Below, in pieces: positions 4,977-18,265 of a stretch of DNA of 31,646 nucleotides. Under the pieces are notes generated by a model. That model worked only from the letters and a program-made list of their open reading frames with translations. It was not told where the DNA came from and searched no databases. The DNA is from a virus (Duplodnaviria > Heunggongvirae > Uroviricota > Caudoviricetes): positions 1 to 31,646 of IMG/VR virus record IMGVR_UViG_648276671_000019. One strand, given 5' to 3'. How positions within the stretch are numbered: the stretch's first letter is position 1; each line of letters starts with the position of its first letter. The position numbers were made by a program, and so were the translations under genes.

Positions 4977-5680
4977 TAACTGACGGTTACAGTGCAGGAA
5001 GTGGAGGTCACTTTGTTAACCGGGCTTGCTGAATCAGAAATCTCGCAGGTATATGCGCCCGCATCACCGGATACTGCCGATGCCTTACTGAACGTTGCCG
5101 CCGTCTGTCCGGAAACAGGAGAACTACCTTTCTTCCAGACATAAGAATAAGGCGGCACACCACCGGCAGCCTCAACCATCATTTCGAGTTTTGCTCCGGC
5201 AGAAACCTGCAGCGTGCTGTTTAAATCGACCTTCACTTTCAGCGGCTCTGTCGTCAGCACAGGTTTACCTTTCAGGCGCAGGGAAAACGTTGCAGCCACA
5301 ACACCATTGGTTCCTGCAGACCAGGTATGCTGACGCACCTCTGCCATAAAGGTAAATCCGTTTCCTGACGGAAAAATAACTTTAAAGCCATACGTGGTGT
5401 CATTGTCATAGGCACTGCGCAACGCGTTCTGGGCAGCATTGAGGTAAAAGTTGCCTGACATGGAAATCTCTGACGCGGCACCAAGACCGTTAATATTTTC
5501 CTGCTCAACAGAACACAGCGTGGTGACATCAATATCCTGCTTTTGTCCTGCGGTAAACTGCACCTCTTTGATTGTACAGCTCAGGCCAAGATAGCTGGCA
5601 GAATCCAGGGTTTCTGCTGTTACCGGTGCAGACGAAATCATAATTTTCGTCAGTTGCGAACGCTCAAAATTAGAGGACAT
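4976..5680 (-). CDS. V: Major tail protein (gpV-like) with C-terminal Ig-like domain
   Basis: Position between tail-completion genes and G; ATG at 5680 preceded by AGGAGA; C-terminal PPYSYVWKKGSSPVSGQTAATFSKASAVSGDAGAYTC segment resembles Ig-like (Big_2) decoration domains. Confidence 0.8.
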   Translation of the reverse strand: MSSNFERSQLTKIMISSAPVTAETLDSASYLGLSCTIKEVQFTAGQKQDIDVTTLCSVEQENINGLGAASEISMSGNFYLNAAQNALRSAYDNDTTYGFKVIFPSGNGFTFMAEVRQHTWSAGTNGVVAATFSLRLKGKPVLTTEPLKVKVDLNSTLQVSAGAKLEMMVEAAGGVPPYSYVWKKGSSPVSGQTAATFSKASAVSGDAGAYTCEISDSASPVNKVTSTSCTVTVS

Positions 5681-5693
5681 ACTCGTCTCCTGA

Positions 5694-5718
5694 AAATAAA
5701 AAACCCGCCAGCGGCGGG
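5694..5718 (-). terminator. Rho-independent terminator-like hairpin upstream of the major tail gene
   Basis: On the minus strand, stem CCCGCC-GCT-GGCGGG followed by TTTTTTATTTT. Confidence 0.5.
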
Positions 5719-5739
5719 TGGGTAAAATCATTAACGGCC

Positions 5740-6084
5740 TCAGGCTATTACCTGAAATTCAAGCGTGGCTCTGCTCAGACGGGAATCAGGATCATAACCC
5801 TGCGTTTTAGAAATAACGGAGGGTGCCAGTTGCCTTACCGCATCAAGCGCCTGCTCACGGATATCATCTGCGTCATCAGGTACTGTTGCCCAGACATCGA
5901 TCTGCACGGTAATTCTGGATTCAGCCTGACCATCAAGCACATCAGACGTAGTGTCAGACACCACAGAAAATACCAGCCATGGCGGAGATACCGCAGGCTT
6001 TCCCTCCGTCAGCGGGACCACATAAGGATAAACCTGTCCTCCGGCCAGTTGAGACAGCAGGGAATACAGTGTGGTCTCTCTCAT
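5740..6084 (-). CDS. Putative tail terminator / tail completion protein
   Basis: 114-aa ORF immediately upstream of the major tail gene, ATGA-coupled to the preceding gene; function assigned by position only. Confidence 0.5.
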   Translation of the reverse strand: MRETTLYSLLSQLAGGQVYPYVVPLTEGKPAVSPPWLVFSVVSDTTSDVLDGQAESRITVQIDVWATVPDDADDIREQALDAVRQLAPSVISKTQGYDPDSRLSRATLEFQVIA

Positions 6085-12852: not shown

Positions 12853-13203
12853 TCAATTGATGCGTTCGCGCGCTGTTTTTGCTTTATGACAGGGCCAGCA
12901 CAGACTCTGCAGGTTACTGTCTGCATCCGTGCCACCATGAGCTTTCGGAATGATGTGGTCCACAGTTCTGGCTTCAACGGCTCTCCCATTGCGCAGGCAG
13001 TTCTGACACAGATGATTATCACGCTTCAGTATGCGCGCACGTATGGCATCCCATTTCGAGCCATAGCCACGCTGGTGGCGGCTCAGTCCGCGTTGATGCT
13101 GTACCCATCCTTCGCCACGATGTTTATCGCAGTAACCAGAACTGTCTGTGGTTGTACCTGCACATCCACGCTTACGGCAGGCGCGTGGGATTCGTGATGG
13201 CAT
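12853..13203 (-). CDS. HNH endonuclease associated with terminase
   Basis: 116 aa with Cys-rich zinc motif and HNH signature (VDHIIPKAHGGTDADSNLQSLCWPCH); the usual position next to the small terminase in HK97-like cos phages. Confidence 0.85.
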   Translation of the reverse strand: MPSRIPRACRKRGCAGTTTDSSGYCDKHRGEGWVQHQRGLSRHQRGYGSKWDAIRARILKRDNHLCQNCLRNGRAVEARTVDHIIPKAHGGTDADSNLQSLCWPCHKAKTARERIN

Positions 13204-13245: not shown

Positions 13246-13710
13246 CTACTTAATGCACTGAGTGCGGATATACTCCTGTGCCCCTTCCAGTTGCATCTGC
13301 ATCGTCATCAGCCGCTCTCTGAGGGTGAAATAATCCCGTTCAGCGGTGTCTTCCAGTCGGGGGCTGGTTGCATTATCCACGCCGGAGGCGGTGGTGGCTT
13401 CACGCACTGACTGACAGACTGCTTTGATGTGCAACCGACGACGACCAGCGGCAACATCAGCGCGCAGAGTTTCATTTTCAGCTTTCGCATTGGCTAATTC
13501 TCTCGAGTACTTTGCATCGAGAGCAGCAACATCACGCTGACGCTGCTGCATGTCAGCGATGGTGGCGATCGCCTGCTTCAGCTCACTGACTTTTTTATCA
13601 CGCTGTTCTTTGTAGGCGATGGCGTTATCACGGTAATGATTGACCGCCCACGACAGGCAGACGATGATGCAGATAACCAGAGCATAAATAATCGCGGCGA
13701 CTCTGCTCAC
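13246..13710 (-). CDS. Rz: Spanin, inner-membrane subunit (Rz)
   Basis: Translation closely resembles lambda Rz; probable GTG start at 13710 overlapping the endolysin stop (GTGA), the ORF-track start at 13725 being TTG. Confidence 0.85.
13308..13490 (-). CDS. Rz1: Spanin, outer-membrane lipoprotein subunit (Rz1), nested in Rz
   Basis: 60-aa ORF in the +1 frame inside Rz with lipobox LVVVGC and a PPPPP stretch; near-identical to lambda Rz1 as I recall it. Confidence 0.85.
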
Positions 13711-14240
13711 TGATCTATCCCCCAACAGGCTAATGCGCTTTCCTGGTCACGACGAATAACCTGTCCATAGCAGTTATTTGAACGTATGCGGCAATCGCGC
13801 CCACCATCTTTTATCCACCAGCGAATCGCCTCGCATGCACCTTTACGATCACCAGCATTCAGCCGCTTATAAAACGTCGACGGAAAACACTTACCGGGGC
13901 CAATGTTATAGGGACAAAATGACGCGATACCCGCTTTTTGTGGTTCGGTCAGTGGTACTTTAAGATTGCGCTCCACCCATGCCAGCGCCTTATCACGCTC
14001 AATGGCGTTGACCTGGTCGCATTTTTCCTTCGACAGTTTCATACCGGGAAAAACGGGTTTTCCATCCACCATCGTGGCACCCCGACAGATGGTCCAGATG
14101 CCGGACCCATCGCGGTATGCCGTTGTGTGGTTACCTTCTTTTTCATCCAGAAACTGGTCGAGAATATCAGGCGCGGGCGCACCGACGGCAATCAGTGCCA
14201 GAACGGCAGCCGACAGGCCGTATCTGATTTTTGCGTTCAT
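13707..14240 (-). CDS. Endolysin (T4-lysozyme-like), probably SAR type
   Basis: E-x8-D-x5-T catalytic triad ([20 protein letters not shown]); N-terminal weakly hydrophobic Gly/Ala-rich segment [17 protein letters not shown] consistent with a signal-anchor-release domain. Confidence 0.8.
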
Positions 14241-14303
14241 GGATATTTATCAGGATTTATCGGTTTCTGCCCACGGACAGGTTTATCTGTTCCGGTCAGT
14301 GAC

Positions 14304-14654
14304 TTAAGGTTGTGATTCCGGAGGAGTCTTCAGAGAACCAGTAATTCTTCCTGGTAGCTTTCCTTTGTAGGTTATCCACACATTCTGCGCATCTAAAATT
14401 ACGGGGTGCTTTTCCGGCGACTGCTCATCCCCTTCACATAACCCGGCAGCAACATCCAGGAAGACCTGTCTGATGCTCCTTCTGGCTGCTGCCTCATAAA
14501 ACTCCAGCGCGGCACCTTCAACACGGTCCAGCGAGATGTCCAGGTCAAAAATTTCACCGTCAAAGCGTTTTTTGTCCCGTAACGCTAAAGTTACCGTAAC
14601 TTTATTCTCAAAATTGCGGATCCCTTTCACAATCAGTTCATAGTTTTGAGTCAT
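14304..14654 (-). CDS. Hypothetical soluble protein inside the lysis cassette
   Basis: 116-aa ORF translationally coupled 4 nt after the holin stop, Shine-Dalgarno GGGGAGAG; no transmembrane segment or signal peptide. Confidence 0.55.
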   Translation of the reverse strand: MTQNYELIVKGIRNFENKVTVTLALRDKKRFDGEIFDLDISLDRVEGAALEFYEAAARRSIRQVFLDVAAGLCEGDEQSPEKHPVILDAQNVWITYKGKLPGRITGSLKTPPESQP

Positions 14655-14658
14655 TGAA

Positions 14659-14874
14659 TTACTCTCCCCGTGCAGCCTTACGCTTGTCTTCTCTGATTTT
14701 GAAGTACAGATTTGTCAGATAAGTCAGGAAGCCCAGAACCAGACTCCCCAGTACACCAATCGCAGCCCACTGTGACGGACTGACCTGATCAAGCCACTGT
14801 AAAAACCAGTAGCCAGCACTGCCTGCGGAGGTGCCGTAGGCAATGCCCGTTGAAATTTTATCCATGGATTTCAT
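14659..14874 (-). CDS. Holin, phage 21 S-like (pinholin) with dual-start motif
   Basis: 71 aa, [26 protein letters not shown] matches the S21 holin family; Met1-Lys-Ser-Met4 gives antiholin and holin starts; GGAGGTGAGG Shine-Dalgarno. Confidence 0.85.
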
Positions 14875-15157: not shown

Positions 15158-15232
<75 letters not shown>

Positions 15233-15233
15233 A

Positions 15234-15310
15234 TGGTCCGTCACCGAGGACTCGAACCCCGCACCATCAACTTAGAAGGTTGATGCTCTATCCCGATGAG
15301 CTAGTGACGG
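15234..15310 (-). tRNA. tRNA-Arg (anticodon UCU)
   Basis: Acceptor CCGTCAC/GTGACGG, anticodon stem TCAAC/GTTGA with loop CTTCTAA, T-loop TTCGAGT, 3' ACCA; 1 nt from the neighbouring tRNAs. Confidence 0.8.
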
Positions 15311-15311
15311 T

Positions 15312-15387
15312 TGGTGGCCCTTGCTGGACTTGAACCAGCGACCTGGCGATTATAACTCGCTCTCATCATTTAGCTAAAATGGCAGGG
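15312..15387 (-). pseudogene. Degenerate tRNA-Ile-like gene (ileX-like 3' half, anticodon loop GTTATAA)
   Basis: 3' half (TCGCC AGGTC GCTGG TTCAAGT CCAGC AAGGGCC A CCA) is nearly identical to E. coli ileX as I recall it; the 5' acceptor strand and D-arm do not pair properly. Confidence 0.35.
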
Positions 15388-15509
15388 GGAGTGATGATAC
15401 ATCAGTCACATTAAACATGAAAACAAAATGGTTTTAGGTGAAATACAAAAAGAATAGTGATTAAATATCAAATGGATATGCTTTAAATCTAACCACAGTA
15501 AGGACGAGT

Positions 15510-16454
15510 ATGATTTTTCTCAAGAATGGCGAAAGTTTTATTCGCGTGAATGACTGGGCAGAAATTCAGGCGAGAGAGTCTTACTATCCCAAATTAGAGT
15601 TAAATGATCAGCAACTCTCTGACGTTTTTGGTTACTACGATGACCTACCAGAGGAAATTCCATGTGGGAAATCAAATTGCCGCAAAGGGCATAAAAAGGG
15701 ATTTCTGGTAGTTACGAAAGAAGGATTTGAAACGAATATCGGCCATGTATGTGGAACTAATGTTTTTGGTATAGCCTTTGATAATTTAGCAATAGAACTT
15801 TGCCGAAAAGCAGATTTCCATCGCTTACTTACCGCACTTAAAGAGGCAAAAGATGATATTTTTAGCTATTACAAACTCAAAGCCAAAATCGAATCTGGGC
15901 GTCCATCACTAACTGAGGTTGCTCATAGAATACTTGACATGAAAGACCCTAAAATCATCGGGCGTGCAGCTTATCAAACATTGAAAAAGATGGCTGCTTC
16001 TGGTGATGGGCGTGTTTTCCGCTCAAGATTAAAAAATACAGAAGAGCTAGAACTGGACGAAATTATGTCCCAAAAGCAAACAAGCGACTTAGCTCCGAAA
16101 GTTAACAATAAGAACAAAACCGTAAACGAACTTATTGGGGTAATACAATACCCTGAATGCTTGCTGAATGATTATGACATTGCTCTTCTTTATGAAAGAG
16201 ATATAAAAATGGTTCTGGAAAAATTAAACAAATGCAACCCAGATGAATTAACTGAAAGAGAGGTGTTGTCATTTGGAATAAAGGTTTCAAGATTAAGAGA
16301 GCGCTTTAGTTTTGTTCAGGAACGCTTAGAAAAATCGAGGTTTTTTGCAACAAGAGAAAATCTTAAACCTTTACGCGCATTACTTAACATCCAGAAATCT
16401 GTAAGCAACAAAGACAAATTACTATTTAAGAAATTTATGGAAAATTTACCATAA
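15510..16454 (+). CDS. Hypothetical protein (314 aa), opposite-strand insertion between Q and the lysis genes
   Basis: Long ORF in visibly AT-rich DNA, TAAGGA Shine-Dalgarno 8 nt before the ATG, terminator hairpin directly after the stop; Cys/His cluster CGKSNCRKGH...HVCG; no family recognised. Confidence 0.7.
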   Translation: MIFLKNGESFIRVNDWAEIQARESYYPKLELNDQQLSDVFGYYDDLPEEIPCGKSNCRKGHKKGFLVVTKEGFETNIGHVCGTNVFGIAFDNLAIELCRKADFHRLLTALKEAKDDIFSYYKLKAKIESGRPSLTEVAHRILDMKDPKIIGRAAYQTLKKMAASGDGRVFRSRLKNTEELELDEIMSQKQTSDLAPKVNNKNKTVNELIGVIQYPECLLNDYDIALLYERDIKMVLEKLNKCNPDELTEREVLSFGIKVSRLRERFSFVQERLEKSRFFATRENLKPLRALLNIQKSVSNKDKLLFKKFMENLP

Positions 16455-16480
16455 TTAAAAACCCGCTGTAAGGCGGGTTC
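16451..16480. terminator. Bidirectional terminator hairpin (candidate tR' on the minus strand; terminator of the 314-aa gene on the plus strand)
   Basis: Stem AACCCGC-TGTAAG-GCGGGTT; on the minus strand it is followed at once by TTTAATTAT, on the plus strand by a T-run 9 nt away. Confidence 0.55.
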
Positions 16481-16520
16481 TGTGGTAATTTTTATTTTGG
16501 CGCTAAAACCCATGCTCAAA

Positions 16521-16550
16521 ATGGTACAAGACAATTTTATGCAAAGTCAA
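16521..16550 (-). promoter_or_regulatory. Candidate late promoter PR' (-35 TTGACT, 18-nt spacer, -10 TACCAT) with presumed Q-utilisation region
   Basis: Located between the Q stop (16590) and the terminator hairpin; spacer contains ATAAAATTG as in lambda PR'; would give a short transcript of about 60 nt. Confidence 0.35.
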
Positions 16551-16589: not shown

Positions 16590-17405
16590 TCAGTAACTCG
16601 TTGCCTTCTCAAATGCTCTAGCCGCATGCCGCTCACCTTGATGCAGGATATCAACCAATTTTTCATAGAATGGTTTCCAATTGCGCGACCATGAAGACTG
16701 GTGCAGATCGGGAATGTATATTTGAATAGCTCGATGAACATTAGCTGATTTGATAGATACGAATCCCTTTCCACTACAACGCTCGCAGGTTTTAAATACT
16801 GGCATGCCTTGCTCTTTTGTCGCAATACGATCTAGAATTTTCCCTTTTCCACCACAACGGCAACGTGCGCTTATTGCTCCCCTGCCTTCGCAGACATCAC
16901 AGACTGCAGGCACACTCTCCATTATCTCCGTCCAATGCTCCCAATCTGATGGCCGAACAGCGCGAGAACGGCTGGCCCAGTACGGAGGCGGTCCCCACGG
17001 GAAAGAAACCTTTCGTGTAATTTGAGTCCGTGTGGTTCTACCGGTTCCTTTGCATATAGTGCAGACGCTGCTGGTAGCAGCTGAGCGAGAGTACTCAGCA
17101 AAGGCAAACTGCGCCAGTACCAGCATACACCACCCAAATTCACCACCAGCTGCTTTACGCACATTCTTCGGTGCAATTTCCATCGCGTGACGCGCAAGCG
17201 CCTGGACTGCCATCTGCTCATCAGTCTTGCTGATACCGGCCTTCCCAAAGAAAGCCGCCAGGCCAAACCGCTCACGATTGCTGGTGGTACCAATAGCCGC
17301 CATAACATCGGTGCCTGTAAGACGTTCCGGAGAGGTTCCTTTCACATCGTCGCCGATATACATTCCCTGAGGACTGAAGTATTTTAGCGATGCCTCAAGC
17401 TTCAT
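16590..17405 (-). CDS. Putative late antiterminator Q-like protein
   Basis: 271 aa from the ATG at 17405 (GGGGAG Shine-Dalgarno; overlaps the upstream stop); Cys-rich zinc-finger-like motifs CDVCEGRG...CRCGGKGK and CERCSGKG; last gene before the late promoter region. Confidence 0.5.
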   Translation of the reverse strand: MKLEASLKYFSPQGMYIGDDVKGTSPERLTGTDVMAAIGTTSNRERFGLAAFFGKAGISKTDEQMAVQALARHAMEIAPKNVRKAAGGEFGWCMLVLAQFAFAEYSRSAATSSVCTICKGTGRTTRTQITRKVSFPWGPPPYWASRSRAVRPSDWEHWTEIMESVPAVCDVCEGRGAISARCRCGGKGKILDRIATKEQGMPVFKTCERCSGKGFVSIKSANVHRAIQIYIPDLHQSSWSRNWKPFYEKLVDILHQGERHAARAFEKATSY

Positions 17406-18265
17406 TATTCGCACTCCCCAACCAGATTGAGGATGACCGCCGCACCGTCGTCTTCCATGTACTCCCCCTTACCACTTGCCAGAAACCAGCGGCACACCTC
17501 CACAGCTTCGGTGCGTGTTACCGGTTTGATGGTTACCAACAATTTTTCCAGGTAGCGCTCGCGGTCATATACCGATTCGTGATGCTCAGAGTAACCAAAC
17601 TCATCGCCCTGTTCTTTGGTTGCAGTGTGGCGAACACTGTAGAGCCAGTCCCAGTAAACAAACTCACGAACTACGTCTGACAATGTATGAGGCTCTGGCA
17701 GTACATCACGATAGCCATCAACATATGCACGACGCTGATCATCAATTTCATTCATACGGATGCCGTCAATGCTGCCCGCTTTCTTCTCTGCCGCAGTCCA
17801 GCCCCAGAGATGATCGTCGATAAATTTCCGGGAAGACTTGATCACTCGCTCGGCTTCCACATCTTCGAGTGCTGCTTCATAGCTACCAAACGTAGCCCTG
17901 ACTGATGCTGCTTTTTTGATATTCTCCCGGGCGTTCCTGATTGCCTGTGCCGGGTTATCCATGCCGATGGTACCGAAAGCAATCTGGAAAGGATCACAAC
18001 CATTCGCCAGCAGATAACGCGAGTAGCGTTCCCGGGCCTCTTCTGACGATATTTTAATTTTCTCCAGTGCAGCTTCGGCAGCGTCCAGATGCGCGGGTTC
18101 ATTCAGGCGGATTACCTCCAGTACCCAAAGATAAGCATCCGTCTGTTTATGCCCGGTAATTTTTCGTTGCTCCGGCAACGGCTTGATATTTGCAGGAACA
18201 AAGCTATGCGCAGCCGTCGGGATGGTGAACAGTGTTTTGTGTACCTGATTGTCTGTGCGCATCAT
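17405..18265 (-). CDS. Hypothetical protein (286 aa)
   Basis: ORF coupled to the primase upstream and Q downstream; no family recognised. Confidence 0.6.
   Translation of the reverse strand: MMRTDNQVHKTLFTIPTAAHSFVPANIKPLPEQRKITGHKQTDAYLWVLEVIRLNEPAHLDAAEAALEKIKISSEEARERYSRYLLANGCDPFQIAFGTIGMDNPAQAIRNARENIKKAASVRATFGSYEAALEDVEAERVIKSSRKFIDDHLWGWTAAEKKAGSIDGIRMNEIDDQRRAYVDGYRDVLPEPHTLSDVVREFVYWDWLYSVRHTATKEQGDEFGYSEHHESVYDRERYLEKLLVTIKPVTRTEAVEVCRWFLASGKGEYMEDDGAAVILNLVGECE

Follow-up and report, generated by a model that had tools for sequence, protein, structure and literature searches.

BstA is a 307-aa protein of prophage BTP1 that acts as a single-protein abortive-infection defence; its gene has its own Rho-independent terminator and is found mainly in Gram-negative prophages, with a minority of prophage-independent or plasmid copies (Owen et al. 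2021, PMC8585504). The subject of the present study is a gene encoding a 314-aa protein at positions 15510-16454 (+ strand) of a 31,646-nt stretch of viral DNA, IMG/VR record IMGVR_UViG_648276671_000019, which is referred to in full as the window and constitutes a lambdoid prophage. The gene resembles bstA in being a single gene for a protein of ~300 aa with two domains, of which the N-terminal one is conserved. It lies in the interval between the late antiterminator gene Q and the lysis genes, where cargo is already known as a kind, and its protein family is already catalogued, without function, in PHROGs; no description of the gene itself was found in the literature searched. What is new is a large unannotated family with a CCHC zinc domain and no recognisable fold, a distribution like that of defence genes, and an antisense position behind the late terminator tR'. 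The gene is read here, with moderate confidence, as an anti-phage defence that is expressed in the lysogen, consists of one protein and belongs to a new family, and is put forward as a solid experimental candidate rather than as a demonstrated system.

An intact AT-rich gene antisense to the late operon

The early-right, late-regulatory, lysis and morphogenesis genes of the prophage are all carried on the - strand. The 314-aa gene is intact and is the sole long + strand open reading frame (ORF) in the Q-to-lysis stretch, lying antisense to the late operon between Q on one side and the tRNA and lysis genes on the other, with the flanking phage genes all on the - strand. Q and the 314-aa gene are convergent, and the distance from stop to stop is 135 bp. 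Windowed analysis gave a GC content of 0.366 for the gene, compared with 0.495 for the window and 0.514 for the flanks, and no other 945-bp segment of the entire 31.6 kb was as low; GC at third codon positions (GC3) was 0.318. Comparison with three close homologues revealed 20-40 nucleotide changes and just 4-6 amino-acid changes, giving a ratio of nonsynonymous to synonymous substitution rates (dN/dS) of 0.04-0.06, indicative of strong purifying selection. Because a 945-nt ORF is maintained in 37% GC DNA, shows this low dN/dS and has more than 1000 homologous clusters, the ORF is a functional protein-coding gene and not a chance ORF. The compositional contrast extends to the family. In 50 non-redundant viral-contig loci (clustered at 90% identity), the family gene was lower in GC than its flanks in every case (50 of 50), by 10.8 points on average, across hosts ranging from 34% to 68% GC.

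A second AT-rich patch is present in the window at ~23175-24517 (+; GC ~0.37) and encodes an S24/HTH repressor (255 aa) and a 142-aa HTH protein, with a YdaS/Cro-like gene (22846-23118) on the strand opposite to the patch.

The gene is preceded by a Shine-Dalgarno sequence, the AAGG of which is present in all six aligned upstream regions, the ribosome-binding site being kept in homologues at 60% identity. Further upstream, the motif TGaTTAAAT is the best candidate for a promoter belonging to the gene itself. This putative promoter resembles an extended -10 element, and columns T74, G75, T78 and A80-T84 of the upstream alignment (A6) were invariant in homologues down to ~60% protein identity.

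On the late strand, a GC-rich hairpin follows the PR'-like promoter site at a distance of ~40 nt. Read on the - strand, an inner hairpin (16460-16479) is followed by the T-run TTTTTAATT. Read on the + strand, the last codons of the ORF (16446-16453) pair with 16481-16488 to form an outer stem, and since this places a U-run (16489-16498) directly behind the structure, the hairpin is predicted to terminate transcription in both directions. The TAA stop codon of the 314-aa gene falls within the T-run of the hairpin. At the PR'-like site, the block TTGACTTTGCATAAAA..TGTC..GTA is kept in six phages with or without the 314-aa gene, and six phages can be aligned column for column over the whole block of promoter, leader and hairpin (alignment A5). 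The carriers in this alignment are the window, Escherichia coli 10671 and STEC308, plus an Stx2f (Shiga toxin 2f) prophage with a 25%-identical version of the protein; those without the gene are phage Fraca (Q 68% identical) and Klebsiella phage ST340-VIM1phi10.1 (Q 64%). Because the block is positionally conserved in relatives that lack the 314-aa gene, the hairpin is most probably the phage's own late terminator, the Q-controlled tR', as judged from its position and conservation. In relatives without the ORF, similarity to the window stops at about 16525-16499, within the PR' leader. The late-operon leader thus houses the 314-aa gene, immediately beyond PR'-tR', and for the tRNAs and lysis genes to be transcribed, Q-modified polymerase must first traverse it in antisense.

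A weak match to the Rfam OrzO-P antitoxin RNA was recorded over the PR' leader and terminator (16457-16526, -; 24.7 bits where the gathering score is 60, E 0.34). This and a Trp-leader match over the leader were far under threshold and were regarded as chance.

An earlier reading of this DNA, made from the sequence alone (hereafter the sequence-only reading), had described a long ORF in AT-rich DNA on the opposite strand, antisense between Q and the tRNA and lysis genes and with its own ribosome-binding site, and the results given above bear it out. It had also assigned the gene a terminator hairpin after the stop. The hairpin is indeed present, but it appears to be the shared, bidirectional late terminator and not one of the gene's own.

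Variable occupancy of the Q-to-lysis slot

Presence of the gene was scored against Q identity among viral contigs. The gene was found in all nine contigs with Q at least 85% identical, in 17 of 35 at 72-85% and in none of 30 at 60-72%, and phages that lack the family gene include examples whose Q is 62-81% identical. Within the phage collection, a Q homologue was found in 249 records and a family member in only 5. Of 5426 complete E. coli genomes, 22 contain a close copy, and these are the same 22 genomes that bear this Q allele.

The slot can hold other cargo. In one contig (L174; Q 75% identical, no family gene), the interval from Q to the tRNAs is occupied by an unrelated antisense gene (5110-5922, -) encoding a 270-aa product with an N-terminal CDESG motif, an alternative cargo at the same site whose product may be DUF3800-like. 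In another contig (L149), the same slot is filled by small late-strand genes. At this site, the family gene was truncated, split or reduced to a remnant in L140, L170, L179, L171-L173, L180 and the Stx2f phage phi467 (LN997803), and such copies fit a dispensable accessory gene.

In STEC308 the family gene lies between Q and tRNA-stx2; in the Stx2f prophage (2015C-4136CT1) the interval from Q to stx2f holds a homologue of 25% identity. When the window, the Stx2f prophage and a Salmonella prophage were compared, the Q proteins were 72-77% identical whereas the family proteins were only ~25% identical. This looks like replacement of a cassette at a fixed site, not co-divergence.

The 314-aa gene has two features of a moron, namely a base composition that deviates from that of its flanks and a variable presence among phages with the same flanking modules. 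It is a cargo gene ('moron'), probably an autonomous one, in the late-operon leader, directly after tR' and on the opposite strand. The proposal that the gene is cargo in a Q-to-lysis hotspot was thus upheld: the gene is missing from relatives with closely similar flanks, homology ends at the gene, other cargo occupies the slot elsewhere, the gene is not universal among related prophages, and no match to a housekeeping phage protein was found.

The features of the locus are collected in Table 1. A degenerate tRNA is located between tRNA-Arg and the 314-aa gene, at the left edge of the AT-rich segment. Its acceptor and anticodon stems are mismatched and it was not called by ARAGORN; the corresponding sequence in phage vB_EcoS-611R1 is annotated as tRNA-Pseudo-TAT. 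The 3' half of the copy in the window is similar to phage tRNA-Met genes. It may be that a tRNA was damaged as the cassette was acquired.

Beyond the lysis genes, the gene order continues with HNH and terminase genes. The HNH endonuclease gene (12853-13203, -) adjoins the terminase genes, an order that is usual for cos phages. On the other side of the locus, the helicase ORF (DEAD/ResIII, replicative) encodes 861 aa, compared with ~540-550 aa in the related prophages L001 and L136. Pfam domains cover only its first ~330 residues, and the C-terminal ~500 are unexplained.

Table 1. Positions of the 314-aa gene, its expression signals and its neighbours in the window.
Feature	Position	Strand	Basis or remark
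Holin, DUF1327, lysozyme and Rz genes	13246-14874	-	
tRNA-Gly(tcc) of the late operon	15158-15232	-	
tRNA-Arg(tct) of the late operon	15234-15310	-	
Degenerate tRNA-like sequence, anticodon TAT	15315-15383	-	Rfam tRNA 31.3 bits, gathering score 29
TGaTTAAAT motif like an extended -10 element (putative promoter)	15458-15466	+	~45 nt before ATG; upstream alignment
Shine-Dalgarno AAGGA	15500-15504	+	5 nt before ATG
314-aa gene, ATG start	15510..16454	+	ORF listing; phrog_7003 match
Bidirectional intrinsic terminator (predicted)	16446-16498	both	Folding dG -18.9 kcal/mol, z -3.4
Late promoter PR'-like site, TTGACT-18 nt-TACCAT	16521..16550	-	Promoter scan; directly downstream of Q
Late antiterminator Q	16590-17414	-	PF03589 E 2.4e-51; phrog_127
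286-aa protein gene	17405-18265	-	
Toprim primase	18262-19230	-	
Helicase	19232-21817	-	

A zinc-domain protein family and its genomic contexts

The product of the 314-aa gene is a soluble, two-domain protein of 36 kDa. It has no signal peptide and no transmembrane (TM) segment, and indeed no hydrophobic segment of any kind, the highest 19-residue hydropathy being 1.25. The protein matched phrog_7003 over its full length (E 1e-117, 394 bits; residues 1-313 aligned with positions 1-308 of a 309-position profile). The statement in the sequence-only reading that it matches no family was therefore too broad, but phrog_7003 is of unknown function and carries no annotation, and membership thus tells nothing about what the protein does. 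In keeping with the remainder of that statement, searches of Pfam, NCBIfam and PADLOC produced no meaningful match for the protein, and Pfam and PADLOC produced none for 20 diverse members of the family. A profile search of PDB sequences gave a best E value of 0.17, in low-complexity helices. Foldseek searches with the full model against PDB and BFVD, and with the N-domain model against PDB, returned no match at E <=0.001.

An exhaustive profile search recovered 1120 clusters (at 50% identity) with E <=1e-3, 218 of them at <=1e-30. Among the best 150 clusters, nearly all proteins are 270-335 aa long, together with a few shorter fragments, and every family member with a source name is called hypothetical. 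The family is distributed among Gamma- and Betaproteobacteria, with members also in environmental Betaproteobacteria and in a planctomycete metagenome-assembled genome (MAG).

Conservation was counted over 151 family members sharing <60% mutual identity. Residues Y43, C52, C57, H61, G64, G78, C81 and G82 were invariant and residues N76, T75, F86, F90, E179 and N284 nearly so, while the rest of the C-terminal two thirds was poorly conserved. The Cys/His cluster remarked on from the sequence alone is therefore genuine as regards C52, C57, H61 and C81; H79, which had been included in it, is not conserved. The N-terminal CCHC zinc domain (approximately residues 1-87) is acidic (pI 5.0), and the C-domain (residues 88-314) is basic (pI 9.4), helical and variable. 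The AlphaFold (AF2) models are confident ones (predicted local distance difference test score, pLDDT: whole protein 89.9, residues 1-98 91.7) and depict a small beta-rich domain containing the four ligands, followed by a helical domain into which one beta-hairpin is inserted and in which residues 190-201 form a disordered loop. The placement of four ligands (C52, C57, H61 and C81) on one zinc indicates a structural site, and the only conserved polar residues besides the zinc ligands are Y43, T75, N76, E179 and N284. As no other conserved constellation of catalytic appearance is present, the protein is more likely to act by binding than by catalysis.

Three candidate relationships were rejected. 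An HNH or His-Me finger nuclease was suggested by the arrangement H61...N76...H/N79 together with the Cys ligands; no Pfam match and no PDB sequence match for the N-domain were obtained, the best Foldseek hit of the N-domain model had an E value of 0.9 with a template-modelling score <=0.44, and position 79 is variable. A ClyA/NheA-type alpha-pore-forming toxin was matched by Foldseek at E 1.5-4 with a template-modelling score <=0.13, and the protein lacks a hydrophobic segment. Homology to BstA was discarded since no KilA-N domain was found in the 314-aa protein or in the 20 diverse members.

The phage contexts of the family were surveyed in the 50 viral-contig loci. The next downstream gene was on the opposite strand in 42 of 49 loci. 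Q was the convergent neighbour, 77-162 bp away, in 21 of the 50, with holin and endolysin genes on the other side, and these 21 loci involve two unrelated Q families (PF03589 type in 13, DUF1133/lambda-Q type in 8). In a further context, comprising 15 of the 50 loci, the convergent gene is for a small, conserved protein (75-117 aa); in 11 of these loci the 3' end of that gene overlaps the family gene. In those loci that were inspected (L030, L035 and L093), the small protein and the family gene are located beside an S24-type repressor, in the immunity region. Placement in the immunity region was also seen in Klebsiella phage ST13-OXA48phi12.2 and in F116-like Pseudomonas phages. In addition, a satellite-like small element with integrase, primase, small terminase and capsid genes carries a family copy at its accessory end. 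A scan of the genome contigs detected a single locus.

The small convergent protein (L030, L032, L035, L040, L044, L046-L048, L050-L052, L074, L089, L093 and L129; for example L093 8911-9171, -) contains the motif C[ED]G[FY] and matched nothing in Pfam. In the repressor-adjacent context it might serve the family protein as a partner or antidote. The window lacks it, as does every Q-type locus but L074, in which it is encoded between Q and the family gene.

It could be argued from this geometry that the gene is a regulator intrinsic to the phage, acting on the lysis-lysogeny switch or the late switch, the protein or its convergent transcription serving to damp Q and the late operon, and with it the toxin in Stx2e/k and Stx2f phages. 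The convergence with Q is found with two unrelated Q families, about 15 loci show convergence with the repressor operon, the tR' hairpin is common to the gene and the late operon, head-on transcription at induction is guaranteed, and the gene lies between PR' and stx2 in STEC308 and likewise in the Stx2f prophage. Such a role is nevertheless improbable. Half of the closest Q relatives lack the gene, as do 244 of the 249 phage records with this Q family, the family is also present in non-phage contexts, and an identity of 25% at a fixed site where Q retains 72-77% would not be expected of a co-adapted regulator.

The strongest clue to the function of the family came from its contexts outside phages, of which nine were inspected, all involving distant betaproteobacterial or planctomycete members. 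In one island, the family gene follows a Type I hsdM-hsdS pair, an HATPase_c_3 gene and a GajA/GajB-like pair, and precedes a DUF2726 gene. In a second, it follows a DEAD helicase gene, a T5orf172 gene and a different GajA/GajB-like pair. Since the GajA-like proteins are only 24% identical, these two Gabija-like islands are independent. On a contig of the planctomycete MAG (L230, 4857-12061), the family gene separates hsdS from hsdR, lying on their strand at intervals of 95 and 18 nt, and a gene combining RVT_1 and Trypsin_2 domains lies upstream of this Type I restriction-modification (R-M) operon. Another family member is divergent from a SIR2_2 gene, which itself adjoins a resolvase gene; a further member adjoins a resolvase gene, and one is carried in an integrative and conjugative element (ICE) between a ThiF-type gene and traG. 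The family was also found on 20-25 plasmids of Burkholderia, Vibrio and Pseudomonas. Taken together, a single mobile gene in prophage hotspots, satellites, ICEs, plasmids and defence islands has the distribution expected of a defence gene. No recurrent partner gene was identified, the downstream same-strand genes in ten loci being unrelated to each other, and the family gene therefore works alone.

The last result also bears on the idea that the gene is addictive or selfish in the manner of a toxin, or that it serves lysogenic conversion by acting on the host cell or an animal host. The gene is patchy in occurrence, horizontally mobile and AT-rich, and in prophages of Shiga-toxin-producing E. 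coli it lies next to stx, all of which would suit such a role. On the other hand, no conserved partner fit to be an antitoxin accompanies it, the protein has neither a signal peptide nor a TM segment, its top 19-residue hydropathy being 1.25, and the family is widespread in environmental Betaproteobacteria and reaches the planctomycete MAG. This explanation is very unlikely. The suggestion in the sequence-only reading of a host-interaction gene finds no support: the protein lacks an export signal or TM segment, and the family reaches into environmental Betaproteobacteria. The alternative offered in the same place, a candidate anti-phage defence gene, was strengthened by the Gabija-like islands, the SIR2 neighbour, the Type I R-M operon, the satellite, the ICE and the plasmids, although it stays a candidate as to function.

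Proposed role and comparison with known systems

The defence reading has to be set against several results. For the phage loci, the neighbours of the family gene are core phage genes and not defence genes, and no PADLOC enrichment was found in the three genes on each side, where only generic helicase, HNH and methylase matches were recorded. In PADLOC-DB v2.0.0 the 314-aa protein matched no family at E up to 1, and the 20 diverse members produced only isolated weak matches (best E 0.0024). The non-phage contexts are a small sample of nine, taken without a formal background, and in three of them the family member is solitary between housekeeping genes. A consensus scan yielded no canonical sigma-70 site for the 314-aa gene, whose promoter consists of the conserved motif only. 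Finally, one Vibrio plasmid copy is found within a few kb of genes for an antirestriction protein, a zincin-like (ArdC-type) protein and Hok/Gef, a setting that suits counter-defence or establishment just as well as defence.

It is the Vibrio plasmid that keeps alive a role in counter-defence or establishment, in which the protein would neutralise host immunity or a stress response on entry, like the Ard-type proteins of plasmid leading regions. Carriage on prophages, a satellite, an ICE and conjugative or mobilizable plasmids is compatible with this role, and a small binding protein devoid of a catalytic motif would suit an inhibitor. Chromosomal copies in defence islands, and the same-strand copy between hsdS and hsdR, are unexpected places for an inhibitor, however; solitary chromosomal copies exist as well, and in this prophage the gene lies outside the early operons, antisense to the late operon. 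Counter-defence is accordingly considered unlikely, though less so than either of the roles weighed above.

One interpretation of these data, in line with the favoured defence reading, would run as follows. The 314-aa protein would be made in the lysogen from its own promoter and remain in the cytoplasm, where it would shield the lysogen, and hence the prophage, from other phages. The N-domain, with zinc held by the structural Cys3-His site, would be the working part common to the family. Binding of a nucleic acid or protein component of the invader would either block its development or trigger abortive infection, action by binding being suggested by the lack of a conserved catalytic motif. 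The variable, basic, helical C-domain would recognise the invader and set the specificity, much as in BstA. Upon prophage induction, Q-modified RNA polymerase would pass tR', transcribe the 314-aa gene antisense, collide with its transcription and silence it, and such silencing would spare the phage's own late development and give the prophage self-immunity. Conversely, transcription of the 314-aa gene could slightly damp late or stx expression. Note that the logic of antisense silencing does not hold for the cI-adjacent loci, which also tells against the scheme. All parts taken jointly, that is, a new and widespread single-protein defence family with a zinc-binding fold for which solved structures offer no detectable relative, self-immunity by antisense transcription, and lower toxin in Stx2e/k and Stx2f phages, make up a proposal that is tentative and rather doubtful as a whole.

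Were the gene a defence gene, it would encode a common single-gene immunity protein, with more than 1000 clusters, an unrecognised fold and a probably non-enzymatic action, and it would provide a simple example of a prophage turning its own defence gene off by backward transcription. In some Shiga-toxin phages, where it is placed between stx2 and the late promoter, the gene could also affect toxin and phage release. Should the role instead be counter-defence, the family would still be an abundant one that is unannotated in the libraries searched.

As regards known systems, the 314-aa gene shares with the lambdoid morons its form as a discrete insert between conserved modules, a deviant GC content and a variable presence, with putative expression signals of its own, and like the moron gene bor of lambda it is antisense to the late genes. 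The product is unrelated to any known moron product. The same interval bears other lambdoid cargo, namely stx2 in STEC308, stx2f in 2015C-4136CT1 and also tRNA genes. These genes are on the late strand and are Q-dependent, whereas the 314-aa gene is antisense and would be opposed by Q-dependent transcription.

The gene prrC lies between hsdS and hsdR of EcoprrI. The family member on the planctomycete contig is placed in the same way, a placement typical of accessory defence genes. It is the single such case, and the copy in the window is not near any R-M system. The family also differs from PrrC in having no anticodon-nuclease or ATPase motifs and no homology to it.

The comparison with BstA is the closest in terms of biology. 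The immunity region, next to the repressor, is a frequent site for BstA genes, and in about 15 of the 50 loci the family gene is placed there too; both families are mostly prophage-borne with a minority of off-prophage and plasmid copies. The two are nonetheless distinct. There is no sequence relationship, with neither a KilA-N nor a PADLOC match, and the N-domain of the 314-aa protein is a CCHC zinc domain. The copy in the window occupies the Q-lysis site, antisense to the late operon, instead of a position downstream of cI, and the repressor-adjacent members of the family are usually convergent with the repressor operon. By analogy, the 314-aa protein, although unrelated to BstA, would be its functional counterpart.

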